The position numbers and the translations under genes were made by a program. Of a DNA stretch of 64,000 bases, positions 2-45,516 are shown piece by piece. The number at the start of each line of letters is the position of its first letter. Position 1 is the first letter of the stretch. This DNA is from an uncultured bacterium (GTDB taxonomy: Bacteria > Cyanobacteriota > Cyanobacteriia > Cyanobacteriales > JASJDA01). The notes under the pieces are model-generated. The model saw nothing but the letters and a program-made list of their open reading frames with translations. It was not told where the DNA came from and did not search any database. The stretch covers positions 32,599 through 96,598 of the forward strand of contig CAYWIH010000002.1 in the NCBI GenBank assembly GCA_964458305.1, in the 5' to 3' direction.

Positions 2-1216
2 TTCAGACAATAATTTTTTGATAATTTTTAAAAGTAAATTAGAATCTAGTGGTTTAGAAATATTTGCGCGGACGTTTTTTGATAATTTAGCTCGGATACG
101 GTCTACAATATTATCCGTTAGCAAAATGACCGGAGTATTTTTTAAACGATCGACTCGCTCTAATTGAGATAAGATTTCGTAACCGCTTACAATTGACATA
201 TTTGCAGCCAATAAAATAGCATCTGGCTGATAGGAAATTAATCTAGGAACAGCTTGCCAACTATCTTCAATGCTAATAAAACGGTTGCCAGTTTTTTTAA
301 CTATATTACCTAGAAATTGACATTTTCCTGGATCGTTATCGATCGCGACAATTAAAGCAGATTGGCAATTATTATTAAAATTTAACGAAGTATTGCGATC
401 GCTATCGGCTTGAGGAGATTTAATTTCTTGGGGATATATTTTTGCAGCTCGATCTTCAAATTCTGATAATTGTTCCGGTTCGATAAACTGCAGTATGCCT
501 TTATTAACGTAAGTAATTAAAGAACTAGCTAATTCTATTAAATTATCTCCAGTTAAAAAAGCTAGATCTAGCAGACTATTTTTGCCATCTAATAAATTAA
601 CTAATTCTGGAGAAATAATATTAGAGAAATTTAATTCTGAATTAGCTATAGTCACTACTAAATGGGGCGACCAAAATCCCAAACCTTTTTCTACCCATCT
701 AGCCCAAACTAGCTTACTTTTTTTAAATGCTTCTTCTGGATGAATTAGAGCTAAGGGTTTAGCTGACATATAACTAATTTTAGCAGAACTATAACAATTA
801 GAATCGATGCTGTATTCTAGGGAATGGTAAGTTTCTTGTTGTAAGAGATCGAATAAAATTTCTTCTACTTTAGTTTGGATTAATTCTTTAACCTGCTGCA
901 GTTCGATCGTGTTTTTTTCTAAATAATCTGCTAAGATTAGATAGCGATCGCAACCGGAATGATTTTCTTTTAAAATCGCAAGAGATTCTCGATCTAATTG
1001 AGGAAAATAATGTTTTAGATGTCTGTGCCAAGATTGAAGAGCTGCTCGGCCACCATCAACCCAGAACAATCTTCCCAAACAAAAATATAATCGCCAAATA
1101 ATATTGCGCGGGGAAGTTATTTTTAATTCGCCGTTAAATTGTTTTTCCTTTAAATAAGATAGTTGTTGAGATAGTTTAAGATTTGTTAAATTGATAGTAC
1201 TAGTAGAAGAGCGCAT
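2..1216 (-). CDS. PatA/PixG-type response regulator (PATAN-like N-terminal domain + C-terminal receiver); 3' end runs off the left window edge
   Basis: Absent from the supplied ORF track because it reaches the edge. Manual minus-strand translation from ATG 1216-1214 gives MRSSTSTINLTNLKLSQQLSYLKEKQFNGELKITSPRNIIWRLYFCLGRLFWVDGG... The C-terminal receiver reads ALIVAIDNDPGK...QPDAILLAANMSIVSGYEIL...PVILLTD...ISKPLD. The frame is open to position 2. Confidence 0.65.
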   Translation of the reverse strand, partial: MRSSTSTINLTNLKLSQQLSYLKEKQFNGELKITSPRNIIWRLYFCLGRLFWVDGGRAALQSWHRHLKHYFPQLDRESLAILKENHSGCDRYLILADYLEKNTIELQQVKELIQTKVEEILFDLLQQETYHSLEYSIDSNCYSSAKISYMSAKPLALIHPEEAFKKSKLVWARWVEKGLGFWSPHLVVTIANSELNFSNIISPELVNLLDGKNSLLDLAFLTGDNLIELASSLITYVNKGILQFIEPEQLSEFEDRAAKIYPQEIKSPQADSDRNTSLNFNNNCQSALIVAIDNDPGKCQFLGNIVKKTGNRFISIEDSWQAVPRLISYQPDAILLAANMSIVSGYEILSQLERVDRLKNTPVILLTDNIVDRIRAKLSKNVRANISKPLDSNLLLKIIKKLLSE

Positions 1217-1394
1217 CTAAAAATATATCCTGACTTTACTTGCCGATTTCAAAAGAAATATTTGAGGTAATTTCGATCTCAATATCTCTTAATTAAATTA
1301 TCGTAGCGAAAACAACAAAATTCATCGGCATATGTAAGTAACATACATTAGGCTGATTTACTTAATTTGTAATAAAAATTAAAATATAAGCCGA

Positions 1395-2066
1395 TTATTC
1401 TCGCAGAACGTAACCGACACCGCGTACAGTTTGAATCAAACGTTTTTCTTGTTTAGCTTCTAATTTGAGGCGTAAATAGCGAATGTAGACCTCAATAATA
1501 TTAGAATCCCCCATAAAATCGTATCCCCAAACCCGCTCTAAAATTTGGTCGCGAGTGAGAACTTGACGGGGATGGGACATTAAATATTCGAGCAAATCGA
1601 ACTCTTTAGCAGTAAACTCGATCGAGCGATCGCCGCGATTTACTTGACGAGTATTGCGATTGAGACGCAGATCGGCAAATTCGAGAACCTCAGAAAGATC
1701 CGAACTATTACTACGCAAACGAGCGCGAATTCTGGCCAGCAACTCCTCAATACTAAAAGGTTTAATCAAATAATCGTCAGCACCAGCATCCAAACCAGCA
1801 ACGCGATCGCTAACTTCATCCTTAGCAGTCAACAAAATAATCGGCACTTTCGAACCAGTTTGACGCAAACGCTTGCAAATTTCGGGCCCCGAAATACCAG
1901 GTAACATCCAATCGAGCAAAATCAGATCGAAATCCGATTCTCGAGCCGCAGTCAAACCGCTAAAACCATCGTTAGCGACTATTACCTCGTAACCTTCATA
2001 TTGAAGCTCTAATTCGATAAATCGAGCTAATTTCGTTTCGTCTTCAACAACTAAAATACGGGACAT
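1395..2066 (-). CDS. OmpR-family two-component response regulator (receiver + winged-helix)
   Basis: The internal ATG at 2066 gives MSRILVVEDE. Receiver motifs are FDLILLDWMLPGISG, ILLTAKD and KPF. The winged-helix tail reads LTAKEFDLLEYL...VRGVGYVL. The 41 extra N-terminal codons in the track ORF overlap the upstream gene and were dropped. Confidence 0.9.
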   Translation of the reverse strand: MSRILVVEDETKLARFIELELQYEGYEVIVANDGFSGLTAARESDFDLILLDWMLPGISGPEICKRLRQTGSKVPIILLTAKDEVSDRVAGLDAGADDYLIKPFSIEELLARIRARLRSNSSDLSEVLEFADLRLNRNTRQVNRGDRSIEFTAKEFDLLEYLMSHPRQVLTRDQILERVWGYDFMGDSNIIEVYIRYLRLKLEAKQEKRLIQTVRGVGYVLRE

Positions 2067-2092
2067 TTTTCCATATAATACGATACGAGAGT

Positions 2093-3160
2093 TTATTTTT
2101 GTTTGGGGACTCGAGGCGATCGGGGCTGCTTCGGAAAAGGACTGAGAACGCGATTGAGAGAGCGTAATTGTTCGGCCGTACCCATACAAATAAGCAAATC
2201 TTTCGGCATCAAACGAGTTTCTCCAGTCGGCCCGGCCACCAGAGTGCCATCGCTGCGGCGAATAGCCAAAACCAGCGCGCCAGACTGCGATCGCAACCTA
2301 GCCTCTCTAAGAGTTTGGCCGACGCAGGTACAAATATCGGGATCGAGCATATATTCTTCCATATAAAAAGAGCGATCCGCACCACTGAGAATACCATCAA
2401 CAAAATCCATAACCAGAGGTCTCAGGGCTGCAGCTGCCAAACGCCTCCCGCCAGTAATATAAGGAGATATTACCGCATCCGCGCCAGCTCTTTGTAACTT
2501 TTGGACAGCTTCTTCAGAAGAAGCCCGAGCGATCGCCCGCAGATCTCGATTGAGGGTTTTAGCAGAGAGTATAGTATAGAGATTTTCCGCATCCGAACCC
2601 AAAGCAGCCACCAAACAAACAGCTTTATCGATTTGAACCGCTAAGAGAGTTTCATCGAGAGTAGCATCCCCTTGAAAAGCAACATAACCCATTTGTTTGG
2701 CTGCTTCGACTTGTTGAAGGTTGGCATCGACAATAGCAAAAGGAATCTTTTCCGATTGAAATTCGGTAGCTACTTGACGGCCCATGCGCCCGAATCCACA
2801 GACAATATAATGTTGTTCTAGGCTTTCTATCATTTGTTTCTCCTGTCGCCGTCGAATTCTTTGCTGAAAGTATCCTTCAATAATTGCCTCGGTAAAGCGA
2901 TTGACGATATAACCGATAGTGATTACTCCCATCAAGATTAAAACAATAGTAAAGAGACGGGATTCTTCCTTGAGAGGATAAATTTCCCCATACCCTACCG
3001 TAGATAGGGTAATAATCGTCATGTAAGCCGAATCCAACCAAGTCCAGCCCTCAACTAGTTTGTACCAAACAGTACCGAGGAGAACAACCCCACCCAATAC
3101 GAAAGCACCTCTAATGAGTTGTTGTCGCAGCCGCCGCTCTTTTTCTTCAATGGTGTACAA
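2093..3160 (-). CDS. Two-TM potassium channel with cytoplasmic RCK (TrkA-N/TrkA-C) domains
   Basis: Selectivity filter TLSTVGYGE between hydrophobic helices. Rossmann motif IVCGFGRMGRQVA. TrkA-C-like C-terminus. The start is a TTG at 3160, so the exact start is uncertain. Confidence 0.85.
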   Translation of the reverse strand: MYTIEEKERRLRQQLIRGAFVLGGVVLLGTVWYKLVEGWTWLDSAYMTIITLSTVGYGEIYPLKEESRLFTIVLILMGVITIGYIVNRFTEAIIEGYFQQRIRRRQEKQMIESLEQHYIVCGFGRMGRQVATEFQSEKIPFAIVDANLQQVEAAKQMGYVAFQGDATLDETLLAVQIDKAVCLVAALGSDAENLYTILSAKTLNRDLRAIARASSEEAVQKLQRAGADAVISPYITGGRRLAAAALRPLVMDFVDGILSGADRSFYMEEYMLDPDICTCVGQTLREARLRSQSGALVLAIRRSDGTLVAGPTGETRLMPKDLLICMGTAEQLRSLNRVLSPFPKQPRSPRVPKQK

Positions 3161-3301
3161 AACAGTTTCACTAAATTTAAATTACTCTGAGCTACCAAAA
3201 AATATTGTTTAAATCCGATCGAACCGGAATTTGACTAAAATTGTGATTAACATTTCCCTTAGAAATCTATTAGCAATCAATTTTTTTTAGGAGTCAACTA
3301 A

Positions 3302-4582
3302 ATGGCGAGCGAGCAAACTCTGGTTGAAAATTCTGGCCCTCCTTCAGCATTTTCCTCCTCGATCGGTTTCGACCAAGATAATTTTAATGCCTACGTGACG
3401 AACACTTACGGCCGCTTTCCTATTGCTATAGAAAAAGGGGAAGGTTGTACCGTAACAGACACTCAAGGTAAAGAGTATCTCGATTTTGTAGCCGGAATCG
3501 CTACTTGTACTTTGGGACACGCCCATCCCGCTTTAATTGAAACGATAACGCAACAAATTCAGAAATTACATCACGTTTCCAATTTTTATTACATCCCTTC
3601 TCAAGGAGAGTTAGCACGTTGGATCGTAAACAATTCTTGTGCCGATAAAGTATTTTTCTGTAATTCTGGTGCGGAAGCCAACGAAGCGGCCATTAAATTG
3701 GCTCGTTTGTACGGCCATCAAGTCCTAGAAATAGACGAGCCGGTTATTTTAACCGCAAAAGCCAGCTTTCACGGTCGGACTTTAGCAACTATTACCGCTA
3801 CCGGACAGCCTAAATATCATAAAGGTTTCGAGCCTTTAGTGCGAGGTTTTGAATACGTTCCCTATAACGATCTGATTGCGATCGAAGATGCGATCGGCGA
3901 TATCGATGAAGGTTCTTATCGTCGGGTAGCAGCAATTATGTTAGAACCCTTACAAGGCGAGGGTGGGATTCGTCCGGGAGATTTGGACTATTTCTTGCGC
4001 TTGCGGAAAATTTGCGACGAAACGGGCATCCTGCTAATTTTAGATGAAGTACAAGTGGGAATGGGTCGCACTGGCAAGTTGTGGGGCTACGAAAATTTGG
4101 GCATCGAACCCGATATCTTTACTGCGGCTAAAGGTTTGGCCGGAGGCATTCCGATCGGGGCGATGATGAATAAGAAATTTTGCGATCTCTTCCAACCAGG
4201 AAATCATGCCAGTACTTTTGGCGGTAACCCCCTTTCTACTGCTGCTGGTTTGTGCGTGGCTCGGGTTTTAGAGCAAGATAACCTTTTAAATAATGTTATC
4301 GCCAGAGGAGAACAATTACGCACTAGATTGCGGGCGATCGCGGCATCTCATCCCGATTTGTTTGTCGAGGTTCGCGGTTGGGGTTTAATTAATGGTATGG
4401 AACTAAATCCAGATGTCGAAATAAGTTCGATCGATATCGTTAAAGCTGCTCTCGATGAAGGGTTATTAATTGCTCCTGCGGGCCCGAAAGTGCTGCGTTT
4501 CGTTCCTCCTTTAATCGTTTCTGAAGCCGAAATCGATCGGGGGATTTCGATGTTAGAAAAAGCAATTGCTAATGCGCGCTAA
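3302..4582 (+). CDS. argD: Acetylornithine aminotransferase (class III PLP aminotransferase)
   Basis: 426 aa. Motifs GHAHPALIETITQQIQKLHHVSNFYY, LILDEVQVGMGRTGKLW and FTAAKGLAGG (PLP lysine context), typical of ArgD. Confidence 0.85.
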   Translation: MASEQTLVENSGPPSAFSSSIGFDQDNFNAYVTNTYGRFPIAIEKGEGCTVTDTQGKEYLDFVAGIATCTLGHAHPALIETITQQIQKLHHVSNFYYIPSQGELARWIVNNSCADKVFFCNSGAEANEAAIKLARLYGHQVLEIDEPVILTAKASFHGRTLATITATGQPKYHKGFEPLVRGFEYVPYNDLIAIEDAIGDIDEGSYRRVAAIMLEPLQGEGGIRPGDLDYFLRLRKICDETGILLILDEVQVGMGRTGKLWGYENLGIEPDIFTAAKGLAGGIPIGAMMNKKFCDLFQPGNHASTFGGNPLSTAAGLCVARVLEQDNLLNNVIARGEQLRTRLRAIAASHPDLFVEVRGWGLINGMELNPDVEISSIDIVKAALDEGLLIAPAGPKVLRFVPPLIVSEAEIDRGISMLEKAIANAR

Positions 4583-4677
4583 ATTCTCAAGCCTCGATCG
4601 GCTTTGTTTGAGTTTATCGGGCAAATTCTAACTAGGTTGCCTGCAGATTTAAGGGGTTATTGTATAGTTTAATTTTT

Positions 4678-5814
4678 ATGGCAGATCGACAACATCTTTA
4701 CTTACTCAAGCAAAATTTGCATATTTGGAATGAGTGGAGAAAAAACAATCCTGAAATTGAGATCGATTTAATTGAAGCCGATCTCAGCGAAATCGATCTC
4801 ACTGGTGCCGATCTGTCTAATGTGGATTTGTCTGGGGCTAAATTAATTAGTGCGGATCTCTCGCGAGTTAATTTGAGCGGTGCTTATCTTTCTGCTGCTA
4901 ATTTGAGCTTTGCTAAGTTAAACCGAGCTAATTTTAGTTTTACTTATCTTGGCAGTTGCGATCTCAGTTTTGCCACTCTCGATCGAGCTAATTTGAGCGG
5001 TGCTTATCTTGCTGCTGCTAATTTGAGTTTTGCCGATCTCAGTAATGCCAATCTTAGTTTTGCTAATCTCACTGAGGCTGATTTTAGCGAAAGCGATGCG
5101 AAATTTTCTCAATTTAGTTTTGCTGACTCGAGCGGGGTCAATTTTTATAAGGCTAATTTATCGAACACCGATTTTAAACAAGCCAATCTTAGCGATGCTA
5201 ATCTCACTGAAGCCAATCTTACCAATGCTAATCTCACCGAAGCCAATCTCAGCAAGACCAATTTGAGCTACGCGATCGCTTATTTTACGAATTTTAAAGC
5301 CGCTACTTTTAATGGTGCTACTGTCGAAAGTTGGAAAATTAACAGTTACACTCGATTCGAGCGAGTTATTTGCGATCGCGTTTATTTGCAGTCGTCTCGA
5401 GCCGAACAAAATTTGAGCGATGAAGTTTTAAAGATCGATTTCGCCCCCGGTGAATTTACCCGTCTGTTTCAAAAAACTCGAGAATCAATTGAATTGGTTT
5501 TTGCTGAAGGTATCGACTGGCCTTGCTTTTTATCTGTGTTTAAAACACTTTTGTTAGAGTGGAGTTCTTCGGAATTATCGATTAAAGCGATCGAATCTGA
5601 ATTTTCTGGGGCTTTCGCGATCGCTGTTGAGGGCCACTTTACCACCGAGAAAGCAAAAATTATCGAGAGTTTTTGGCTTAAGTACAATACACTTCTTGCC
5701 GATCGCCTTACCCCAGATCTCAATTTTGACCCCAAACAAGTTAATGGCGATCGCTTGTTACAAATTATTGAAATCATTGTCGATCGTTTCGAGGAAATCG
5801 AATCTACTGAATAA
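4678..5814 (+). CDS. Pentapeptide-repeat protein with a non-repeat C-terminal domain
   Basis: About 200 aa of A(D/N)LSx pentads (ADLSGAKLISADLSRVNLSGAYLSAANLSFAKL...). The ATG at 4678 (MADRQHLY) is preferred over the TTG at 4660. Confidence 0.85.
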   Translation: MADRQHLYLLKQNLHIWNEWRKNNPEIEIDLIEADLSEIDLTGADLSNVDLSGAKLISADLSRVNLSGAYLSAANLSFAKLNRANFSFTYLGSCDLSFATLDRANLSGAYLAAANLSFADLSNANLSFANLTEADFSESDAKFSQFSFADSSGVNFYKANLSNTDFKQANLSDANLTEANLTNANLTEANLSKTNLSYAIAYFTNFKAATFNGATVESWKINSYTRFERVICDRVYLQSSRAEQNLSDEVLKIDFAPGEFTRLFQKTRESIELVFAEGIDWPCFLSVFKTLLLEWSSSELSIKAIESEFSGAFAIAVEGHFTTEKAKIIESFWLKYNTLLADRLTPDLNFDPKQVNGDRLLQIIEIIVDRFEEIESTE

Positions 5815-6552
5815 TTTTATTTTTTAAGATTTTGTCGCGCTCCTCAGCTTTTATGCAAAGTTTTAATAATATTTTTTTTTCTTTGTAAATTTTAGAAACT
5901 ATAACAATTTCTTAATTTTTTTGGGGATATTTATGACAATAGTCTAACTATCCCAAAATTTATTGCATATTTTTTTTTAAGTGTATATACTGAAGACAGA
6001 AAATAACCAAAAATTACTTATTTTGGTTAAGGAGAAAGAGCTAAATAGTCAGTATAGTTTTAGGTTTCGTATCGATCGCCTAATCAAGTTTTCTCGATCG
6101 ATACGAAATAATAATAAATTGTTTCCAACTGAATAATTACCGGTACAGATCGAGATCGGCAAAGATTTTCAAAGTAAAATTATTTGTCTGTTTTTGAGAA
6201 TCATAATTTTTCTGAAAAAGCCCTTTGTTTGTGAGATTAGAATATTCTCAAAAAAACTAATTTAAAAGATTAGCTATGTAATCAAGAATAAAAACTAATT
6301 TAAAGATTTTCTTGGGAGAAGATTTTTAAGATTTAAAATAATAGTCTACTACAAACGGACGAAATTAAAATGTATTAAAAAAAACATTGTCAAAAAAGTT
6401 TAAAAGCAGGTATTTTTTGAAATAGAAAGGCTCTCTCTAAAAGAGTAGAAACGATCGATGTTATCGATTAATTAAAAAAAAAGCCTTATTATAAATAATG
6501 AGAAAAAATGAATTAAGCTGATAAAATAAGGAGTGGTTAAGAGGAGTAAAAA

Positions 6553-7716
6553 ATGAAAAATAAAATCCTATTTTTAGGTATTAGAGGTATTCCAGCTAAG
6601 CATGGTGGCTTTGAGACTTTTGCACAACGTTTGGCTCTTTACTTAGTAGATAGAGGCTGGGATGTAACAGTGTACTGTCAAATACAAGGAGAGCAAAAAA
6701 TTGTCGAAAAAAAATGGATGGGAATCAATTTAATTTGCATACCAGTAAAGAACGATAACGCCTTAGCTTCGATCGTATTTGATTATAAAGCTACTCTAGA
6801 TTCTTTAAAAAGAGAAGGGCAGATCATGTTATTTGGATATAACACTGCAATATTTTCTTTGCTGCACCGCTTGAAGAAGAGAATAAGTATTATTAATATG
6901 GACGGATTGGAATGGCGCAGACAGAAATGGGGCAATCTAGAGAAAGCATGGTTGTATGCAAACGAACACTTTGGAGCTTGGTTTAACCGCCACTTAATTG
7001 CAGATCATCCAGAAATTAAAAACTATTTACGTCAGTACATTAAGCCCGAAAAAATTACTGTCATTCCTTACGGAAGCGATCCGGTTATTGATGCGGATGC
7101 GAGCTTATTAAACCGATATAATTTATCTGGAGGCGAATACGCATTAGTGATAGCCAGAGCCGAACCCGAGAACTCAATTTTAGAAATTGTGGCGGGTTTT
7201 TCGAGCAAGAAGAGAAATATGAAGCTGGTAGTATTAGGAAAGTACGATCGCGACAATAATTCTTATCAAAAGCAAGTCTTAGATGCAGCGAGCGAAGAAG
7301 TAGTTTTTCTCGGAGCAATTTACGACAAAGCAACAGTTCAAGCCCTAAGATTTTACGCCAGATTATACGTTCACGGACATACAGTCGGAGGAACAAATCC
7401 ATCTTTAGTAGAAGCTTTAGCGGCAGGTACGCCAATTTTAGCCCACGACAATCGCTTTAATCGTTGGGTAGCAGGAGATGGTGCGAGTTATTTTAAGGAC
7501 ACAGCAGAATGTGACGAGCAATTAGCTCTATTGTTAGACAATACTGACCTACTCAAAAAAATGAAACTGGCTAGTATCGATCGATACGTTGAAGAGTTTT
7601 CTGAAGATAAAGATTTAGCAGCTTACGAAGAATTATTTCTCTCCTATTTACCCGAAGAAAAAGCAGCTAATAACTGGGTGTTGATCGAGCAAAAATCATC
7701 GGCTGGAATACGTTAA
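6553..7716 (+). CDS. Glycosyltransferase, GT4-like with a DUF1972-type N-terminus
   Basis: N-terminus MKNKILFLGIRGIPAKHGGFETFAQRLALYLVDRGWDVTVYC. C-terminal GT-B motif HGHTVGGTNPSLVEALAAGTPILAHDNRFN. AGGAG-type RBS upstream. Confidence 0.8.
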   Translation: MKNKILFLGIRGIPAKHGGFETFAQRLALYLVDRGWDVTVYCQIQGEQKIVEKKWMGINLICIPVKNDNALASIVFDYKATLDSLKREGQIMLFGYNTAIFSLLHRLKKRISIINMDGLEWRRQKWGNLEKAWLYANEHFGAWFNRHLIADHPEIKNYLRQYIKPEKITVIPYGSDPVIDADASLLNRYNLSGGEYALVIARAEPENSILEIVAGFSSKKRNMKLVVLGKYDRDNNSYQKQVLDAASEEVVFLGAIYDKATVQALRFYARLYVHGHTVGGTNPSLVEALAAGTPILAHDNRFNRWVAGDGASYFKDTAECDEQLALLLDNTDLLKKMKLASIDRYVEEFSEDKDLAAYEELFLSYLPEEKAANNWVLIEQKSSAGIR

Positions 7717-7979
7717 AATTTGAGGGAACAATTTGAAGAAACTGTTATCGGTAATCTGTGTCCGAAAAAGATACCGATAATAGCATACTAAAAGAATTGT
7801 CTCTTCAAAAACAGATGAAAACGCAGCATTTTTGTAAATATCTATAACAACAATTAATTTTTTGAGAAAATACGCTTCAATCTAAAGTGAGATCGCCAAA
7901 GCGATTTTTAGTACTTAGTTTAGATAGCGACATCGAATCGCTACCAAAGAAAAAGCTAGAGAAATTTAATTAGGTATTT

Positions 7980-30650: not shown

Positions 30651-31985
30651 ATGAAAGATCTAAGCAATACCGCACCGCTCGAAAATCAAGAAACAAATCT
30701 AAGAACTGCTAATCCCAGCCAGATAAGCACCAATAAATTAAAATGGTTGATTCCAGGCCTATTAATAGTAACCTTAGCCGTAACTTTTCGGATAGTTTCA
30801 TCTAGATTTAACACCAGATCGGTTATTGATTTCTCAACGGTGACAGTACCTGCAAAAGAAAAACAATTGACCGTCAAAATTGAGGCTGCTGGCAGTATAG
30901 TTCCGAGTTACAGCGTTAATATTAGTCCAAAAAATATCGGACGTTTAACAGATCTTTATGTAAATCAAGGAGATGAAGTAAAACAAGGACAAATTTTAGC
31001 ACGGATGGACTCTTTTAATTTGCAAGCTCAAGCCAGCGAAGCTAAAGCAAAATTAAAACAAGCAGAAGCAGAATATACCAAAGTAATTAACGGCAACCGT
31101 ATTGAAGAAATTCGCAGAGCGCAAGCACAAGTAGAGTCCGATCGGGCCAAGGTAGAATTAAGCAATTTAGAAGTACAAAGATATCAAACCCTGGTCACAC
31201 AAGGTGCGCTCGCTCGACAAGAATTAGATCGCAAATTGAGCGAACATAAAGTAAATTTAGCCGCTTTAGAACGCTCAGAGCAACAATTAAAAGAATATAG
31301 TGACGGTTCGCGCAGCGAAGATATCGAGCTAACAAAAGCTAAAGTAGAAGCAGCAAAAGCACAATTAGAAGTAGTTAAAACCAATCTCGAAGAAACAGTA
31401 ATTCGCGCTCCATTTGACGGCATCATTTCTCAAAAATATGCTACCGTAGGCTCGATTATCACCCCCACCACTTCAGCTTCTTCTACCGCTTCAGCTACTT
31501 CCACTTCGATCGTGGCAATAACTTCCGGTTTAGAAGCAAAAATAAATGTCCCCGAAGCAAGTATTTCTCAAATAAAAACGGGCCAGCAAGTAGAAATTGT
31601 TGCCGATGCTTATCCTCAAGAGACTTTTACAGCAAAAGTCACACAAGTAGCCCCAGAAGCAGTAGTCCAAAATAATGTTACTTTCTTTGAGGTGAAATTA
31701 GAACTAATTGAAGGTCGATCGAAATTGCGCTCTGGGATGAACGTCGATGCCACTTTCATCGGCCAAACCAAACAAGCATTAACTATCCCGACAGTAGCGA
31801 TCGCCCTGCAAAACGGTGAAATGGGAGTGATGCTTTTAGACGAGGAAAATCAAGTTCAATTTCAACCCGTAACAGTAGGTTTAACCCAAAACGGCGAAAC
31901 TGAAATTCTCGATGGTTTGCAGTCAGGAGAGCGGGTATTTATTGATTCTCCCAAACAAAATAAAAGATCTTTTGGTAATAGGTAA
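30651..31985 (+). CDS. HlyD/DevB-type membrane fusion (periplasmic adaptor) protein
   Basis: N-terminal TM, lipoyl-like VNQGDEVKQGQILARMD, long coiled coil, then beta-barrel domains. 444 aa. Confidence 0.85.
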   Translation: MKDLSNTAPLENQETNLRTANPSQISTNKLKWLIPGLLIVTLAVTFRIVSSRFNTRSVIDFSTVTVPAKEKQLTVKIEAAGSIVPSYSVNISPKNIGRLTDLYVNQGDEVKQGQILARMDSFNLQAQASEAKAKLKQAEAEYTKVINGNRIEEIRRAQAQVESDRAKVELSNLEVQRYQTLVTQGALARQELDRKLSEHKVNLAALERSEQQLKEYSDGSRSEDIELTKAKVEAAKAQLEVVKTNLEETVIRAPFDGIISQKYATVGSIITPTTSASSTASATSTSIVAITSGLEAKINVPEASISQIKTGQQVEIVADAYPQETFTAKVTQVAPEAVVQNNVTFFEVKLELIEGRSKLRSGMNVDATFIGQTKQALTIPTVAIALQNGEMGVMLLDEENQVQFQPVTVGLTQNGETEILDGLQSGERVFIDSPKQNKRSFGNR

Positions 31986-32007
31986 TCTAAATAGGAGGTA
32001 AAATTCA

Positions 32008-33240
32008 ATGGGTGCAGATTTAAAAGAAAACCTAAACATGGCATTGCGAACTTTAACCGCCAACAAAATGCGTAATTGCCTGACGATGTTGGGGATGATT
32101 ATCGGTAATGCTTCAGTAATTGCAATGGTATCTGTAGGACAAGGTACTCAGAACGAAATTAAGAAACAATTTGAGTCTTTAGGGACTAATATTTTATTTA
32201 TCGTGCCAGGAGTGCAGCAAAGAGGGCCTCAAGCTGGAGCAGTTCAAGCAAATACTTTGTTGTTATCCGATGCCGAAGCGATCGCTAAAGAAGTTCCAGC
32301 AGTCAGTTACGTTGCTCCAGAAAAAATCGAACGTTTGCGTCTAGTTTATGGCGATCGCGATACGAATGTTAGCGTCACCGGTACTACTGAAACATATCCG
32401 CAAGTTAGAAATTCCGAAGTTGCTAAGGGTCGTTTTTTTAATACCGTAGAGGTTGAAAGTCTCTCTCGAGTAGCAGTACTCGGTAGCGAAACGGCTCGAC
32501 AATTATTCGGCACTCGCTCCCCGTTAAATGAAAAAATTCGCATCGGCGATCTCAGTTTTCAGGTAATTGGGGTGATGGCAGAAAAGGGTGCGGCCTTGGG
32601 TCAAAATCAAGATGAAGTAGCTTTTATCCCTATTGTGGTGATGGCTAATCAATTAAGCGGAAGAGATAACCTCAATACTAGCCCCACAGTACAGACTATT
32701 TCTGTTTCAGCTCGCGATCGATCTAGTTCTAGTGCTGCTCAATATCAAATTACTAACCTGCTCCGTTTGCGTCACAATATTTTAGATGGTGAAGATGATT
32801 TTACGGTTCGCAACCAGCAAGATTTGTTAAAAACTGCCAATAATGTGACTAATTTACTGATTTTGGTTTTAGGTGTGACGGCAAGTATTTCTCTAATTGT
32901 CGGCGGTATCGGTATCATGAATATGATGTTGGTATCGGTAACCGAACGTACCAAAGAAATTGGTTTACGCAAGGCTCTCGGTGCGACTGGTCAAGATATA
33001 TTAATACAGTTCAGTATCGAATCGATCCTTTTATCTACCACTGGAGGAGTTTTGGGTATTGTTTTGGGTGTGGGTGGAATTGTCTTAGTTGCTGCGGCAA
33101 GTCCTTTGAGTGCGATAGTTTCGGGTAATTCAATTTTGTTAGCTTTTAGTGTTTCTAGCAGTATTGGTTTGATATTTGGCATAATTCCGGCTCGTAATGC
33201 TGCCAATCTCGATCCTATTTTGGCATTAAGAAGTAGTTAG
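32008..33240 (+). CDS. ABC-transporter permease of the MacB/DevC (FtsX-domain) type
   Basis: AGGAGG RBS lies 8 nt before the ATG. N-terminus ALRTLTANKMRNCLTMLGMIIG, a MacB periplasmic domain, and C-terminal FtsX helices with ERTKEIGLRKALGA. Confidence 0.85.
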   Translation: MGADLKENLNMALRTLTANKMRNCLTMLGMIIGNASVIAMVSVGQGTQNEIKKQFESLGTNILFIVPGVQQRGPQAGAVQANTLLLSDAEAIAKEVPAVSYVAPEKIERLRLVYGDRDTNVSVTGTTETYPQVRNSEVAKGRFFNTVEVESLSRVAVLGSETARQLFGTRSPLNEKIRIGDLSFQVIGVMAEKGAALGQNQDEVAFIPIVVMANQLSGRDNLNTSPTVQTISVSARDRSSSSAAQYQITNLLRLRHNILDGEDDFTVRNQQDLLKTANNVTNLLILVLGVTASISLIVGGIGIMNMMLVSVTERTKEIGLRKALGATGQDILIQFSIESILLSTTGGVLGIVLGVGGIVLVAAASPLSAIVSGNSILLAFSVSSSIGLIFGIIPARNAANLDPILALRSS

Positions 33241-33241
33241 T

Positions 33242-33661
33242 TTAAGGCTGAATTATCGGACAAATAGTATCTGCTTTTGTGTTTTGTTTTGGTTGAGTTT
33301 CTGAAATTAAAGACTGTAATTTAATTTTGAGATCTTTTAATTGTTCGATGCGATCGTCTATTTCTTCAATTTTAATTTTAAGAGTCTGGCGAACTTTACT
33401 ACAAGGCATTTCTCCTCGATCGTGAATTTGCAGTAGCTGTCCAATTTCAGTGAGGCTCAAACCAAGACTTTGAGAGCGTTTAATAAAATTAAGTCGCCCA
33501 ACAATTTCAGGAGAAAAAAGCCTAAACCCTCCTTCTGTGCGCTTTAGGGCTTGAAGCAATCCCAATTTTTCATAATAGCGAATTGTTTCGATTGAAACCT
33601 TAGTTATTGAAGAGATTTCCCCGATCCGCAAGAGTTTTTCTTCTCGATCCGACATAAGCAA
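33242..33661 (-). CDS. MerR-family transcriptional regulator
   Basis: HTH LRIGEISSITKVSIETIRYYEKLGLL, a long dimerisation helix, and Cys residues at positions 87 and 134. It is the last gene of the minus-strand DUF4139 operon. Confidence 0.85.
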   Translation of the reverse strand: MLMSDREEKLLRIGEISSITKVSIETIRYYEKLGLLQALKRTEGGFRLFSPEIVGRLNFIKRSQSLGLSLTEIGQLLQIHDRGEMPCSKVRQTLKIKIEEIDDRIEQLKDLKIKLQSLISETQPKQNTKADTICPIIQP

Positions 33662-33683
33662 TTTTAATAAAAAAAATCAATTA

Positions 33684-35264
33684 CTAAGCTAAAAAATCCA
33701 CTTCTAAATTTACTTCTGGATTCACTTTAATTTTATATACTAAATCGATTTGGTGCTGAGAATAAGCATTTAAATTTAAATTCCAAATACAAAAACCATT
33801 TTCATCTGGCTCGACTCGATCGCTTGTTTTAGTTTTTATTATTTCGATTGTGACTTCTTCTAATTCTGAAATTGGTACTCGTTCGATTAGTTTAATTTCC
33901 CTGTTGCGATCGCTAATATTAGAAAGAAAAATTTGAACTGTAAAAATATAAATATCCCACTTTGTGAGATTATCTTCTTTTTTTTCCCAATCTTTTTCTC
34001 GCTGTACTCTTATTCCCGCATCCGCACCCCATCCTAAAGCAAATTTTTCTTGAGGTGCGATAAATAAAATTGAAGTTTTACCAATAAATTCTGTAGCACT
34101 AATTAAGTCTACTGGTGCGGCTAATAAAGGATAATTAGATAGATTAGTTTGAGTACTTTTAAGAATTACTTGCGGGGCTATTTCTGGCATTAAAAGATAT
34201 TCTATTTCTGCGGGCGATCGAAATTCAAATAAAGGTACTCGATAGGGACGACCGTCAGAAGGGATCTTAGCTTTATTTAAAGCTCTTAATATCCTTACTT
34301 CTCCCCCATCATCGACACCGGGTAAATTAACAGTAGTTGATATTTGTTCTGGTTTAATTCCGGTTGTTTGGATTGTTTGTTCTCTAGGTTTGACAATAAT
34401 TTGTTCCGATTTATTTTTAATATTAAGTAAATCGTCGTTAAGTAGAGGTGGTTCTGTTCCCAAACTAGCCCTTGCTGTCGAAAAAACTAAATCGACATTT
34501 TCCCAATCTTCTCCGGTATTTTGCCAAACACAACCATCACAGCCAAACTCGATCGAAGCTTTTTCTGCTGTTATTAAACGCGCCCGATGCCAAGGTCGCC
34601 AAAGAGCGTTAGCAACGATATATTCAAAGCTTATTTCGTATTCTCTTGGTTGGTTAATTGTCAGATCTACTTCGATATTAGCTGTATAAATATAATCCGG
34701 TCGGGCGATATTTTCGATTCTTGCGATTAAATAATTAATCTTTTCTGCCAGTTTTTCTTGTTCGTAATAGTTACTAACAATTTCGTTTTGTAAGTCTCGC
34801 ATTCTTTGCCACAAAGAATTTAATTGCCTGCGCCAACTGCTAAGATCTAACTGTCCCCAAACCGCATCGATCGGAATTTCTGCGATAGTTTTATTTAATA
34901 TCTCTTTTAATCTTATAAAAGATTTTTCACCGTGCTGACGTTCTTCATTTTTTATTTCAAAATTATTTACAAAATCACGATATTCTACTAACAGTTCTTT
35001 GATTTCTGCTGGTTTTTCTGCTTCTTTAACTAACATTTTACGGCGCGATCGCACGTCATTAATAAGATTATTTTTAGACAAATTTACAAATTCCGCTCTT
35101 AAAGATTTATCCCAAAGAAGCGGAGTGATTTTATCTATTTTTACCCTCCACAAACCAGGATTTAAATTAATAGTTGTTTTTCGCCTTACTAAAGCCCGAT
35201 CTTCAAGTAAAGTTACTACAGAAATAGGAGCATTTATAATTAATTCACTAATTCTTTTTGACAT
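33684..35264 (-). CDS. DUF4140/DUF4139 (MuiA-like) family protein, short paralog
   Basis: 526 aa. N-terminal beta-rich segment APISVVTLLEDRALVRRKTTINL, a central coiled coil, and a C-terminal region (WRPWHRARL...VDLVFSTA...LIERVPIS) collinear with the 774-aa neighbour. Confidence 0.6.
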   Translation of the reverse strand: MSKRISELIINAPISVVTLLEDRALVRRKTTINLNPGLWRVKIDKITPLLWDKSLRAEFVNLSKNNLINDVRSRRKMLVKEAEKPAEIKELLVEYRDFVNNFEIKNEERQHGEKSFIRLKEILNKTIAEIPIDAVWGQLDLSSWRRQLNSLWQRMRDLQNEIVSNYYEQEKLAEKINYLIARIENIARPDYIYTANIEVDLTINQPREYEISFEYIVANALWRPWHRARLITAEKASIEFGCDGCVWQNTGEDWENVDLVFSTARASLGTEPPLLNDDLLNIKNKSEQIIVKPREQTIQTTGIKPEQISTTVNLPGVDDGGEVRILRALNKAKIPSDGRPYRVPLFEFRSPAEIEYLLMPEIAPQVILKSTQTNLSNYPLLAAPVDLISATEFIGKTSILFIAPQEKFALGWGADAGIRVQREKDWEKKEDNLTKWDIYIFTVQIFLSNISDRNREIKLIERVPISELEEVTIEIIKTKTSDRVEPDENGFCIWNLNLNAYSQHQIDLVYKIKVNPEVNLEVDFLA

Positions 35265-35276
35265 AATTTTTTATCC

Positions 35277-35328
35277 CCCCTGACCTCCTACCCACTCTCT
35301 GACCCCTGACCTCCTACCCACTCTCTGA
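35277..35328. repeat. 26-bp direct tandem repeat, 2 full copies plus the start of a third
   Basis: CCCCTGACCTCCTACCCACTCTCTGA occurs at 35277-35302 and 35303-35328, followed by CCCCTG. Lies in the spacer between the two DUF4139 genes. Confidence 0.9.
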
Positions 35329-35338
35329 CCCCTGTACC

Positions 35339-35356
35339 GACGTACCATGGTACGTC
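35339..35356. repeat. 18-bp perfect palindrome GACGTACCATGGTACGTC (member of a dispersed element)
   Basis: Self-complementary around CCATGG. The 20-mer TGTACCGACGTACCATGGTA (35333-35352) recurs identically at 45412-45431. Confidence 0.9.
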
Positions 35357-35370
35357 CTCTAACCTCATTT

Positions 35371-37695
35371 TTATTCTCTTCTATTACCGCCAATTAACTC
35401 TTTATCGATAAAAGTTTTAACAGTATAATTTACTTCTAAAATTGTTTCTTCTTTTGCGGGTAAATCGATTTGCCAGCGATAACCGCCTTTAATTATGGCA
35501 TTTCTTTCTTTTTGATTGTATTCTTCCCATTCTGGAGATAAGCGATCGATCTCGACATCGACTTTAACATTGCGATCGGCTACGGGTATTCTTTCTCTAA
35601 CTTCTATTTTTGCCGATCTATTTAAACGGTTGGCCAGATCTATTTTAATTTGATGGTGTAATTGATTTAAGGCTACTAAACTATCGCTCGATCGGGTTTC
35701 ATTATAGTTAGTATTGCGAGCAACTTTTATTGCTTGTTCTACTCCCAATCCTAATTCCATTTCTCCACCAGTTGGGACAGTTTTAATGTTAGTTCCGAGG
35801 ATATATTCTCCATCGACATAAATATCCGCCGATCCTGCCAATAATGGGGCTTGTAGTGGGTTGCGAAGCTGGGCGATTCTAAATACATTTGTACTTTCGC
35901 GCGGAACTACTACATAACGTAAATTAACATCTGTATTTTGAGATGCGATCGCCACTGAATGAAATTGTCCGTCGCTGAGTAAATCTATTCTTCCTGCTGC
36001 TAAATAAGCATAATCGAAAGATCCTGCTTCTTCGCGAACGTCGATCGATCCGATAGGAAGAGATGGTATGTTATTTGTGGCTTCAAAAGTGGCTTTTTTT
36101 ACTCGATCGATAATATTGAAAGATACGATCGCTTTTTGCCGTTTGAGGTATGTTAAGTATATTTCTTGGCGCGATTCGATGTATAATTTACCTCGTTTGG
36201 ATCTATTATCTGCCGAACTCAATCGCATTAAATTATATGCCAGGCGATCGATCTGAGTTGACATTTTTATTCTCGACTGCGATCTTTTTCGCAATGATGA
36301 AGATCTAGTAGTAATTCCTCTTGCTTTTTCTTCTGGTTCTTCTAAAGTATATCCAGCATTAGCACCAGCTTGTTCTAGCCGAGCTATTACCTCTTCAGCT
36401 TTTTCTTTAGTTAAACCTTGTATGGCTGCTGGTATTGATTCGACGAACTCTTTAGATTCTTTCAGCCCCAAACCAGTAATCGATCTTATTTCTTTGAGGA
36501 TCGCAACTTTGTTCCGTTGTGGAACATTTGTCAGATAAACATCAAATTCTGTTTGTTCTTCTTCTGGTTCGGCAGCAGCACCCATCATCCCCGGCATCAT
36601 CATACCACCAAAAGCACTAGGAGGAGCATCAAGTTCTTCAAGATCGTAGGGAATATCCAAATCTAAAAGAGGTGCTACATTGACAGGAGATATATAAGGC
36701 AGATCGTATCGATCTGAAACGAGATCTTGCTTAGCTATATTTTTATGTCGATCGTAATCTTCAAAAAGAACTTCAGATCCTCTAGGAGGTTGTCGCCATC
36801 CAGTTTTTACTGGTAAACTAGGCTGAGCCTTGCCAATACGTAAAGAAGGTAATTCTGGTAATTCGCACCAACTTTCTGGCAAAGCGGTGGATAATTCTAA
36901 ACGCACCCCCAACCAATCTTCGCCACTATAATGAGCGATCGAGGCACGCATTGCAATAGTCGCTGTATTATTTTTACTATCCAAACGACAAACATAAGTA
37001 GGAGTCCAACGCGCTCCAGGCACGAAGTATTCTATTATTAATCTAGCTCGAGTAAAATTAGCTATCTCCCCGCTATAATTTAAACTTACTATTACTGTTT
37101 TGCGTAATTCGTTCGGTTTGGCTGCTTTTGCTGTCGAGGCTAATTTTTGTTTTTGTTCTAGATCTTGAAGATGTTCGATCGCCTGACGTAATTTTGCTTT
37201 ATTTTCGCGTCGCTCTTTTAATTTAATCTTAATTTCTTCTTCTTTAAAATTAGCTATTGCTAATCTTGCAGCGATCGGCGATGGTGGTGGGGCTTTTTTC
37301 GGATCTGGGTGGGGGCGATCGGGTATCTTTAAATCTGCGATCGCTTCTATTTCTGCATCTATTAAAGCGATGATGTTCTGTAATTTCTGTTCTGCTGCTT
37401 TGGCTTGTCTTATTGCTTCTTCTGGGGGAATAGAGTCGATTTTTTGCGGTGGTGGTACTGCCAAACCGATGCGAATATCCGTGGCGATCGCACTATTTTC
37501 TGACGATTCTGTTTCTACTCTAGCCCTAACGGAACTATCTTCTAAAGCTAAAGGCAGCCCAGCAATTTCTACTCTACTGGGTATCTCCCCATCGACTAAT
37601 TCTAAGTTAGCGATGCGGGTTATTGTCGCACCACTTGCATACACTTTTGCCTTATCGATGTTGGAATTTAATCGAGCTAAACTCATAAAATACAT
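35371..37695 (-). CDS. DUF4140/DUF4139 (MuiA-like) family protein with an inserted ribosomal bL12 (L7/L12) hinge + C-terminal domain
   Basis: 774 aa (start ATG 37695 or 37686). The N-terminus [17 protein letters not shown], a coiled coil, and C-terminal [17 protein letters not shown]...VRERIPVAD are collinear with the 526-aa paralog. Residues about 355-451 are bL12-like. Confidence 0.7.
36343..36561 (-). other. bL12 (L7/L12) C-terminal-domain-like segment inside the 774-aa ORF
   Basis: [74 protein letters not shown] compared with E. coli bL12 [71 protein letters not shown]. It is preceded by a Gly/Ala/Met/Pro hinge. Confidence 0.8.
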
Positions 37696-37889
37696 CCAGT
37701 CTCAAATTCATATTACAGCACAAGAGCAATAGGGAAATATTAATAAATCCTTCCCTCGGCATTGCGGTTGAATCCACAATCGAATAAAGATAATTATTTG
37801 TAGGAGAGTTTTTGGGATGAATAGCTGAAGGCGATCGGCTCAGATTAAAGAATAATAAAAATAGTTAAGCAAAAGAATCTAGAAAAAAA

Positions 37890-38177
37890 ATGTTTTTTAA
37901 AGCCGACAGCCCAGAACTAACTTATTGCTCCATTATTAACGATAGATTTCCAAATCCTTTGAGAGGAATTATGTATTTTGGTTGTTTGTATGTAGAAGTT
38001 AAATCTTATTCTCTTGAAGACTTAGCTGATAATACTACAACAGCAAACGATTTTTTAGCTTCACTCGAACCTAATTTATCGATTGTTACCGAAAATGAGG
38101 AAAAACTTATTATTTGGAGACAAAATGAGGTGTTAAGTAGAACGAGTCGTTTTAAAAAAGAAAAAGTTGCTGCTTAA
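37890..38177 (+). CDS. Hypothetical protein (95 aa)
   Basis: Open frame only. No recognisable motif and no clear RBS. Confidence 0.3.
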   Translation: MFFKADSPELTYCSIINDRFPNPLRGIMYFGCLYVEVKSYSLEDLADNTTTANDFLASLEPNLSIVTENEEKLIIWRQNEVLSRTSRFKKEKVAA

Positions 38178-38429
38178 ATTAGATCGAATTTAAAAAATCA
38201 ATTATCAGAAGTCAAATTAATATCAACGTAAAAATCACTGAAGATCGAGGGAAGCAAACAGATTAGAAACACGATCTCAAAGCATGTAATTTAAATTTGT
38301 CAAGAGATTTAGAAGGACGAAGAAAAAAAATTGCCAAAACCTTTGGCAAAACTGAGAAAAACTCTGTAATAGTAAAATTTAGAACCGCAATTGATTTCTC
38401 AGAAAGTCTAAAACAACTAGAATATTAAG

Positions 38430-38816
38430 TTAGTTGAGATTATGTTTTAGATCGAGGTGTTTAAAAACGGTACCGATTAAATCTTGAGGAGCATATGGTT
38501 TTGTGATGTAGTCCGTACCTCCTTGTCGTAAAGCCCAAAAGCGATCGAATTCTTCAGCTCTAGAACTGCAAAACAAGATAGGTATTTCTTGCCATTCTTG
38601 GGAACGGGAACGAATTTGACGACAAAACTCCAAACCATTAATACCAGGTAAAATAATATCTAAGAGAATCATATCGGGGAAGGAATTAACTTTTAACCAG
38701 TTCCAAGCGTTTTCTACACTATTTACTTCTCCGACTTTAAATCCAGCTTGTCTTAATAATGCTGACATTAGCCTTCTTTCTGATTTAGTGTCTTCCACTA
38801 CAAGTACAGTCTTCAT
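38430..38816 (-). CDS. Single-domain CheY-like response regulator
   Basis: MKTVLVVEDTKSE...PDMILLDIILPGINGLEF...PILFCSS...ITKPY. All receiver signature residues are present. Confidence 0.9.
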   Translation of the reverse strand: MKTVLVVEDTKSERRLMSALLRQAGFKVGEVNSVENAWNWLKVNSFPDMILLDIILPGINGLEFCRQIRSRSQEWQEIPILFCSSRAEEFDRFWALRQGGTDYITKPYAPQDLIGTVFKHLDLKHNLN

Positions 38817-40899: not shown

Positions 40900-41901
40900 A
40901 TGGCTGTAATAAACGGGACAATTTCTGATGATATTTTATCGGGAACATTTGGAAATGATGTTCTTCAAGGTTTTGAAGGTAATGATGTTTTAAATGGAGG
41001 ATCGGGGGACGATCTTTTGAGAGGAGGAGGGGGAAACGATACTCTTAATGGAGGATTCGGCATCGATACTATAGATGGTGGATCGGGATTCGATCTGGTT
41101 GATTATAATTATTTAAATGGAGTAGTTAATCTCGATCTCAATACTGGTATCGCCAGGTTTCCGGGCAATACAACTTTAACCGAAACATTAATCAGTATTG
41201 AAGATGTCATTGGTAGTAATGGTAACGATACTTTAATTGGCAACAATGTCGGCAATCAACTTTTTGGCAGTAACGGTAACGATCTTTTGAGAGGAGGAGG
41301 AGGAAACGATACTCTTAATGGAGGATTCGGTATCGATACTCTAGATGGTGGATCGGGGATAGATCTGGTTGATTATAATTATTTAAATGGAGTAGTTAAT
41401 CTCGATCTCAATACTGGTATCGCCAGGTTTCCGGGCAATACAACTTTAACCGAAACATTAATCAGTATTGAAGATGTCATTGGTAGTAATGGTAACGATA
41501 CTTTAATTGGCAACAATGTCGATAATTATTTTGTTGGCAGTAAAGGAAACGATTTTTTATTCGGACAAGGTGGTAACGATATTTTAGTAGGAGGAGGAGT
41601 TGCAAATAATAGTTCTGAATTTGATATCTTAGAAGGAGGATTCGGAGCGGATACTTTTGTATTGGGCGATTCTATTGATACTTTTTATAAAGGAGATGGT
41701 TTCGCTACTATTACTGACTTTTTTGCGATCGAAGGTGATGTAATTGAAGTTAGCGCACGATACAACTACGAACTAAAATCAGCCTTTGGTGGAGTGGATC
41801 TTGTTTATCAGGGAGATGCGATCGCTTTTATTGATGGGGTAAGTTTAAACGATATTAATCTTGCACCAGTTTCTTCAGGTGGCAATTTTATTTACGTTTA
41901 A
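40900..41901 (+). CDS. RTX-type (hemolysin-type) calcium-binding repeat protein
   Basis: Repeated GGxGxD nonapeptides ([33 protein letters not shown]...). No N-terminal signal peptide, consistent with a T1SS-type substrate. Confidence 0.85.
41011..41521 (+). repeat. Near-identical 241-bp segments repeated with a 270-bp period inside the RTX gene
   Basis: 41011-41251 and 41281-41521 differ at only a handful of positions (for example GGCATCGATACTATAGAT vs GGTATCGATACTCTAGAT). They encode duplicated 80-aa blocks. Confidence 0.9.
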
Positions 41902-45411: not shown

Positions 45412-45431
45412 TGTACCGACGTACCATGGTA
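45412..45431. repeat. Second copy of the dispersed TGTACCGACGTACCATGGTA element
   Basis: Identical 20-mer to 35333-35352. Here the palindrome's right arm has diverged (…GGTAAGC). Confidence 0.85.
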
Positions 45432-45516
45432 AGCCCCTACTGAATTTTGCAGTTGTCCGATCGGAAATTATATGGTAAAACGAACGAGTCGAAGGATAAA
45501 ATTAAAAACTTTAAAA

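Follow-up and report, generated by a model that had tools for sequence, protein, structure and literature searches.

A conserved DUF4140/DUF4139 gene pair whose exchangeable loop holds a bL12-like domain in an uncultured cyanobacterium

Two adjacent genes, A and B, on the minus strand of a 64,000-nucleotide stretch of contig CAYWIH010000002.1 (assembly GCA_964458305.1; hereafter the window) from an uncultured cyanobacterium encode paralogous DUF4140/DUF4139 proteins, and gene order across relatives indicates that they represent a conserved two-gene operon, A then B. Within its DUF4139 domain the longer protein, A, carries a folded domain that, to judge from its sequence, was copied from a cyanobacterial rplL, the gene for the ribosomal stalk protein bL12. 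The loop holding this domain is exchanged as a whole between close relatives, some of which carry other captured domains at the same site. We favor, with a probability of roughly 55 %, the reading of A and B as a cytoplasmic scaffold that displays an exchangeable hub domain, in this genome a mimic of the ribosomal stalk. The region is an undescribed variant of an uncharacterized family. An earlier sequence-only reading of the window had proposed a self-contained three-gene system of A, B and a MerR-family regulator, and had not noticed the Ribosomal_L12 domain in A.

A bL12-like domain inside protein A

The features that bear on this finding, with the evidence for each, are as follows (aa, amino acids; ORF, open reading frame; AF2, AlphaFold2; pLDDT, predicted local distance difference test).

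35371..37695, minus strand: gene A, long paralog with DUF4140, a helical hairpin and a split DUF4139, 774 aa (ORF, Pfam, TIGR02231)
37342..37647, minus strand: N-terminal beta-sandwich (DUF4140) of A, aa 17-118 (PF13600, E = 1.4e-9; AF2 strands)
37132..37422, minus strand: long antiparallel helical hairpin of A, aa ~92-188 (AF2 helices 92-120 and 141-188, pLDDT 82-94)
36244..36735, minus strand: hypervariable loop inside DUF4139 of A, aa ~321-484 (disordered linkers and inserted cassette)
36346..36579, minus strand: captured bL12 hinge end and C-terminal domain in A, aa ~373-450 (PF00542, TIGR00855, AF2, 1CTF)
35371..36243, minus strand: C-terminal DUF4139 part of A, aa 485-774, ending in an invariant GGNRRE (conservation)
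33684..35264, minus strand: gene B, short DUF4140/DUF4139 paralog, 526 aa (ORF, Pfam, TIGR02231, AF2 model)

The insert matches Pfam Ribosomal_L12 (PF00542) at aa 384-446 with E = 3.9e-19. Its best database matches are genuine cyanobacterial bL12 proteins (Trichodesmium, Okeania, Crocosphaera and Chondrocystis) at 55-64 % identity, and an 11-residue segment at its hinge end is identical to Trichodesmium bL12. Against the bL12 model TIGR00855 it scores 76.4 bits, below the 84.4 cut-off, and covers model positions 45-122 only. Pfam found no PF16320 N-terminal domain in A, whereas nearly all of the genuine bL12 matches carry one. In bL12 this N-terminal domain dimerizes, binds L10 and anchors the protein to the ribosome, and the ribosomal stalk binds the translational GTPases EF-Tu, EF-G, IF2 and RF3. 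With its bL12 domain placed internally in a 774-aa chain that is otherwise not ribosomal, A cannot be a ribosomal subunit.

AF2 models the insert with confidence (pLDDT 80-91) as a β-α-α-β-α-β domain flanked by two disordered linkers with pLDDT below 50 (aa 324-380 and 453-484), and the domain superposes on E. coli bL12 (1CTF) with a template modeling score (TM) of 0.90 and a root-mean-square deviation (rmsd) of 1.2 Å. Residues K65, V66, I69, K70, R73, G79, L80 and E82 of bL12 reportedly contact translation factors (Helgstrand et al. 2007). When the insert is aligned with 1CTF in E. coli numbering, K65, V66, K70, R73, G79, L80 and E82 are identical and I69 is conservatively replaced by Leu.

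Selection on the insert was estimated as the ratio of nonsynonymous to synonymous substitution rates (dN/dS, Nei-Gojobori) against relatives, alongside the linkers and the core. The insert gives 0.10 against a 96 % identical relative and 0.33-0.51 against more distant ones, compared with 0.5-1.1 for the linkers and 0.17-0.20 for the cores. These values indicate that the domain is kept by selection, more loosely than the scaffold, and it persists across cores that have diverged to ~70 % amino-acid identity (dS ~1).

A short motif found in other cyanobacterial loops was also considered as a trace of bL12, namely DEFDITLISPG as what might be left of strand one of bL12 (TEFDV.L). In the form D-E-F-D-I-T-L-I-S-P-G-M it occurs in 39 of 160 cyanobacterial loops (e.g., P0004, P0018, L014) and in none from other phyla. 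Since it is confined to those 39 loops and nothing after it resembles bL12, the likeness was set aside as coincidence.

Scaffold anatomy and family

Both proteins belong to TIGR02231 (cut-off 112.6 bits), with scores of 219.6 bits for A and 223.1 bits for B, and both have an N-terminal DUF4140 followed by DUF4139 in Pfam. They align with each other at ~23 % identity (E = 5e-11), and the motifs quoted in the sequence-only reading, which had recognized them as paralogs, occur in the two translations (WTPTY/WRPWH, LSTA/FSTA, ERIPV/ERVPI). A and B are ancient paralogs with a common build. The ~160-aa insert divides DUF4139 of A into two segments, aa 221-320 and 485-760. The C-terminal part of this domain is the most conserved region of the family and can be aligned with B aa 336-514. 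The AF2 model of B (mean pLDDT 77.9) has a β-sandwich at aa 1-77, β-rich domains at aa 193-514 and, at aa 86-186, a hairpin of two ~50-residue helices that is common to A. It also has a disordered loop of ~60 aa (aa 265-323) at the site equivalent to the insert in A. A sequence check of both proteins found no hydrophobic segment fit for a signal peptide or membrane helix, and they are soluble cytoplasmic proteins.

Structural comparison places these proteins near few others. PDB sequence searches with DUF4139 returned no matches. Foldseek matches in the PDB to the AP2 mu-homology domain (E ~8e-3, TM ~0.24) and to MacA were too weak to be accepted as fold relatives. Against BFVD, the fold of B matched uncharacterized giant-virus proteins with E from 8e-14 to 1e-6 (Tupanvirus A0A6N1NPX4, Pithovirus, Pandoravirus and Orpheovirus), one of them annotated DUF4139. 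A viral origin was rejected, as IMG/VR held no relatives by the patterns used and the giant-virus proteins show a likeness at the level of fold only.

At E ≤ 1e-3 the long-paralog profile retrieves ~9,000 cluster representatives of the family, and at the stricter E ≤ 1e-30 it retrieves 1,076. We know of no member of the MuiA family with an established biochemical function, in line with the sequence-only reading. Literature searches with DUF4139, DUF4140, TIGR02231, MuiA and the Pfam accessions gave incidental mentions only and nothing on this architecture; one mention of PF13598 is apparently a typographical error for a kinase domain.

Exchange of the loop among relatives

The A orthologs compared here share 50-97 % identity, and the B orthologs, of uniform length, 53-98 %. 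They include orthologs from Pseudanabaena, Scytonema, Coleofasciculus and Allocoleopsis strains, which can be cultured. Across 120 A homologs conservation is high throughout but collapses, together with alignment occupancy, at query aa ~330-480. In most homologs this loop is acidic or proline-rich disorder. In some cyanobacterial proteins Pfam recognizes folded cassettes at the same site: two Clp_N repeats (ClpN), the C-terminal domain of RNA polymerase α (RNA_pol_A_CTD; αCTD), the bL12 C-terminal domain, or MshEN together with an N-terminal stretch of T2SSE, which corresponds to a PilB N-terminus lacking the ATPase. Among long cluster representatives MshEN, a receptor for cyclic di-GMP (c-di-GMP), is the commonest folded type. 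Each of these captured pieces recruits ligands on a flexible tether in its machine of origin, and each comes without its anchoring portion. An additional helical cassette (P0041, P0051, P0093, L019) was considered as a HAMP domain, an identity that Pfam and PDB sequence searches did not support.

The cassettes differ between proteins whose cores are nearly the same. Core identity is 94 % between P0029 (ClpN) and P0030 (αCTD), 97 % between P0028 (αCTD) and P0021 (no folded domain) and 95 % between P0024 (ClpN) and P0008 (no folded domain). Compared as DNA, L077 and L081 have flanks that are 93-96 % identical around a ClpN loop of ~800 bp in one and an αCTD loop of ~530 bp in the other, with no detectable similarity between the loops, and the whole loop is likewise replaced between L082 and L084. 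The near-identical flanks around dissimilar segments establish that whole loop alleles are exchanged between close relatives.

Some Phormidium and Coleofasciculus loci (L004, L026, L028, L030) have a tandem A1-A2-B arrangement, in which the loop is simply disordered in A1 and holds the PilB N-terminal cassette in A2. The ~95 % core identity of the A1- and A2-type proteins suggests recent duplication or gene conversion.

Conservation of the A-B pair

To assess the distribution of the pair, we used 75 loci from a profile scan with one genome per species, in which six-frame ORFs were searched with the three proteins of the window (A, B and the MerR-family protein). A co-directional B ortholog lies directly downstream of A in 63 of the 68 loci with enough downstream DNA. 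Among the carriers are Cyanobacteria, Myxococcota, Planctomycetota, Streptomyces and a spirochaete (Spirochaeta). The two genes often overlap or lie less than 100 bp apart, overlap being frequent in the non-cyanobacterial loci. A and B form separate orthologous groups, with own-type scores far exceeding cross-type scores. The pairing thus extends beyond cyanobacteria, which upholds this part of the three-gene module proposed earlier.

When all neighboring ORFs of the A-B loci were clustered, no further conserved gene emerged. The cyanobacterial loci have 103 flanking genes of mixed kinds (response regulators 8, Uma2 5, kinases 4), among which PADLOC gave no clear defense-island signal, with matches to generic kinase-type models only (4-5 proteins). 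PADLOC-DB v2 had no defense model that matched A or B. The sole defense-like neighborhood noticed is that of L078/L079, where two AAA_15/AAA_21 (OLD/Gabija-like) ATPase genes, one adjoining DUF4276, lie at 341-7893, 2-9 kb upstream of a ClpN-type A-B locus.

One cyanobacterial subclade has an additional gene of ~170-210 aa between A and B, Hpt-like with an acidic tail (L002 4664-5308, L078 12784-13377, L081 2664-3287 and nine further cyanobacterial loci), which is homologous to the Hpt-annotated N-terminus of B fusions (P0158, P0172). In the same subclade a single-domain CheY-like response regulator often lies 3' of B. Both are absent from the window, and together they hint at a phosphorelay input in that subclade. 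The response regulator upstream of A in the window (38430-38816) was considered as a conserved partner and rejected, as it matches the CheY-like genes after B only generically (55-62 bits).

Proposed mechanism and alternatives

From the strict co-occurrence of the two genes, we propose that A and B most likely form a hetero-oligomeric scaffold. One fixed site inside DUF4139 forms a disordered loop in both proteins, short in B but long and evolving almost neutrally in A, and the loop of A is a hot spot for whole-allele exchange and for capture of folded domains from host machines. Since the insert of the window is folded, is under purifying selection and keeps the helix 4/5 surface, it can be expected to bind what the stalk binds. 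On its flexible tether the bL12 C-terminal domain is thus predicted to bind EF-Tu, EF-G, IF2 and RF3 off the ribosome, or alternatively whatever else targets the stalk, and may act as a tethered stalk mimic, either bait or sponge.

Several points weigh against this proposal. The A-B complex, the binding of GTPases by the insert and the use that the scaffold makes of a bound partner are steps that we infer. In most family members, including all of the non-cyanobacterial ones, the loop is disordered only, which indicates that a folded cassette is an accessory rather than the core function. The insert evolves faster than the core of A and may therefore no longer bind GTPases, and two factor-contact positions are changed in the L12-bearing lineage P0002/L001 (equivalents of K70Q and E82R). 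Moreover, the core of A is poorly modeled (mean pLDDT 59.9), and Foldseek against the PDB gave no significant match for the DUF4139 fold, leaving it with no characterized structural relative.

The scaffold could serve regulation, as a sponge or recruiter, or surveillance, as bait, both being compatible with the data. Under surveillance, A-B would be an integrated-decoy immune or guard system in which the scaffold is the sensor, the loop carries copies of hub domains attacked by phages or toxins, and an invader engaging the bait triggers a response through the scaffold. We consider such a system unlikely, and regard as equally doubtful its variant of an unrecognized bacterial guard or bait system that detects or absorbs phage or toxin factors, as a counterpart of the integrated decoys of plants. 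The choice of domains speaks for a decoy, each being the peripheral, partner-recruiting part of an essential machine without its anchor, but the commonest cassette, the c-di-GMP receptor MshEN, fits regulation equally. Loop alleles that differ between genes 93-97 % identical are a usual mark of conflict systems under diversifying or balancing selection, while the well-conserved cores and an A-then-B order kept across phyla resemble a stable operon. The family is patchily distributed and concentrated in lineages with complex lifestyles, but Pfam recognizes no effector or signaling domain in A or B, PADLOC is negative for the pair, its flanking genes show no clear defense-island signal, and no relatives were found in the viral contigs of IMG/VR with the patterns used. 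Overall, allele swapping and the choice of domains favor surveillance and the lack of an effector domain or clear defense context opposes it, whereas regulation is favored by the frequency of MshEN and by the Hpt- and CheY-like accessories of one subclade.

A neutral passenger, meaning a bL12 fragment that arrived by accident and has no function in a structural protein whose loop accepts insertions of any kind, would account for the disorder and near-neutral evolution of the loop, the many relatives without a folded insert and an insert that evolves faster than the core. Nevertheless, the dN/dS of the insert is clearly below that of the linkers on either side and the domain was retained while the cores diverged, which makes a purely neutral insertion quite improbable. 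The insert still folds in the model, and several unrelated domains of one functional type have been captured at the identical site.

DUF4139/MuiA-like proteins are widespread, and the pairing of A and B, the swapped loop alleles and the capture of hub domains offer testable handles on the family. The loop has repeatedly captured ligand-recruiting domains of the ribosome, RNA polymerase, the Clp unfoldase and the pilus ATPase, and these domains indicate what the scaffold likely touches. A selectively kept bL12 C-terminal domain off the ribosome is unusual in itself; it could be a regulator, as a sponge for translational GTPases, or bait, which, if true, would be a new logic for bacterial immunity.

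The MerR gene and the surroundings of the pair

Two further features lie downstream of gene A.

35265..35370, minus strand: A-B spacer, 106 bp (sequence and pattern searches)
33242..33661, minus strand: MerR-family regulator, 139 aa, or 137 aa from the ATG at 33655 (Pfam, NCBIfam)

The ORF listing agrees with the earlier description of three co-directional minus-strand genes of 774, 526 and 139 aa. The A-to-B gap is 106 bp and the B-to-MerR gap 22 bp (33662-33683). Judging from the starts of relatives, translation of A probably begins at Met4 (37686), for a product of 771 aa, and that of MerR at Met3, the ATG two codons after the TTG, for a product of 137 aa.

The MerR protein scores above the cut-offs of PF13411, PF00376 and PF09278 and has a winged helix-turn-helix (HTH) and a coiled-coil dimerization helix. 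The two cysteines noted earlier are at positions 87 and 134 counted from the TTG start, or 85 and 132 from the ATG called in a 98 % identical relative. Its best solved relative is Bacillus megaterium MerR (4UA1, E = 1.8e-24), with which Cys87 and Cys134 align at the first and third Hg ligands; the middle ligand is replaced by Gln. The model for Hg(II)-sensing MerR, TIGR02051, is not reached (104 bits vs a cut-off of 150.85), all scores against metal-specific NCBIfam equivalogs are below cut-offs, and in PADLOC the MerR HTH matched the generic 'mad1' model only. The 28-43 kb interval showed no metal-resistance genes, as the sequence-only reading had stated.

Searches of ±10 kb around the 75 A-B loci found no homolog of MerR (phmmer 1e-5; tblastn E < 1), even in the closest loci at 70-85 % identity and in L001 and L009, the two nearest that bear L12. 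The B-MerR-MacB arrangement is repeated only in the 98 % identical relative L076. The nearest MerR orthologs (79 % and 55 % identity) lie in unrelated contexts, and none of 80 MerR loci in a metagenome scan has A or B. The role earlier assigned to MerR, as dedicated regulator of a self-contained system, is therefore not borne out, and these comparisons indicate that MerR is an adventitious local neighbor rather than a conserved member of the pair. Co-transcription with B is possible in this species, given the 22-bp gap and the absence of any detected terminator-like site between the two genes.

A three-gene stress system, with MerR as the sensor of metal or redox stress and as the regulator of both DUF4139 genes, draws on this co-directional layout, its recurrence in L076 and the two cysteines that MerR retains out of the three Hg ligands in Bacillus MerR, but is very improbable and largely refuted, because the arrangement is not conserved, even beside the closest L12-bearing relatives or the nearest MerR orthologs. 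MerR also lies downstream of the pair rather than divergent from it.

The A-B spacer contains a perfect 18-bp palindrome, GACGTACCATGGTACGTC, at 35339-35356. After it, at 35279-35330, a 26-bp unit, GGTCAGAGAGTGGGTAGGAGGTCAGG, occurs twice in exact tandem, with AGGAGG in each copy. A second copy of the palindrome, with 2 mismatches, lies at 45418-45435. The palindrome and repeats may represent a small repeat of the dispersed kind or else a hairpin between the two cistrons.

In agreement with the earlier description, an exporter pair lies on one side and unrelated genes on the other. On the MerR side are MatE and prephenate dehydrogenase genes, then genes for an HlyD-family adaptor and a MacB/FtsX permease (30651-33240, plus strand), which converge on MerR and have no ATPase gene immediately 3' of them. 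The stops of the permease gene and MerR are one base apart, and L076 has the identical layout. On the side of gene A are a single-domain response regulator, an RRM protein, an RTX-repeat protein and a histidine phosphatase. The RTX protein (HemolysinCabind; 40900-41901, plus strand) has an internal, near-exact duplication of ~105 aa. Between the response-regulator gene and gene A are ~735 bp (37696-38430), within which the promoter of A must be located. Also in this interval are a 95-aa plus-strand ORF (37890-38177) without a Pfam match and, on the minus strand, a hairpin resembling a terminator (38349-38331).

Comparison with known systems

Compared with bL12 (L7/L12), the insert keeps the hinge end and C-terminal domain at 48-64 % identity to genuine proteins, and shares the fold and the conserved helix 4/5 residues. 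It differs in the missing N-terminal domain and the sub-cut-off TIGR00855 score. The MerR protein of the window has the winged helix-turn-helix and dimerization helix of Bacillus megaterium MerR (4UA1), CadR, CueR and ZntR but, unlike these metal-sensing regulators, lacks the middle cysteine, scores below the cut-offs and has no metal-resistance genes nearby.

The likeness to the integrated decoys of plant nucleotide-binding leucine-rich repeat (NLR) receptors is one of logic only, A being a constant scaffold whose host-target copy differs from one close allele to the next. Unlike NLR receptors, A and B have no NTPase, TIR, nuclease or other effector domain, no conserved third gene and no clear defense-island context.

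Within their own family, A and B can be compared with MuiA (PA1494) of Pseudomonas aeruginosa, reported to be a single gene controlled by the envelope-stress sigma factor SbrI. Its reported effect on alginate and biofilm, including suppressed alginate promoter activity, is disputed in its interpretation (PMC10418997). A and B match the domain order of the TIGR02231 'mucoidy inhibitor MuiA family' and exceed its cut-off. Unlike the single-gene MuiA, they are two cytoplasmic paralogs in what appears to be a conserved A-then-B operon, and A adds a hypervariable loop with captured domains.

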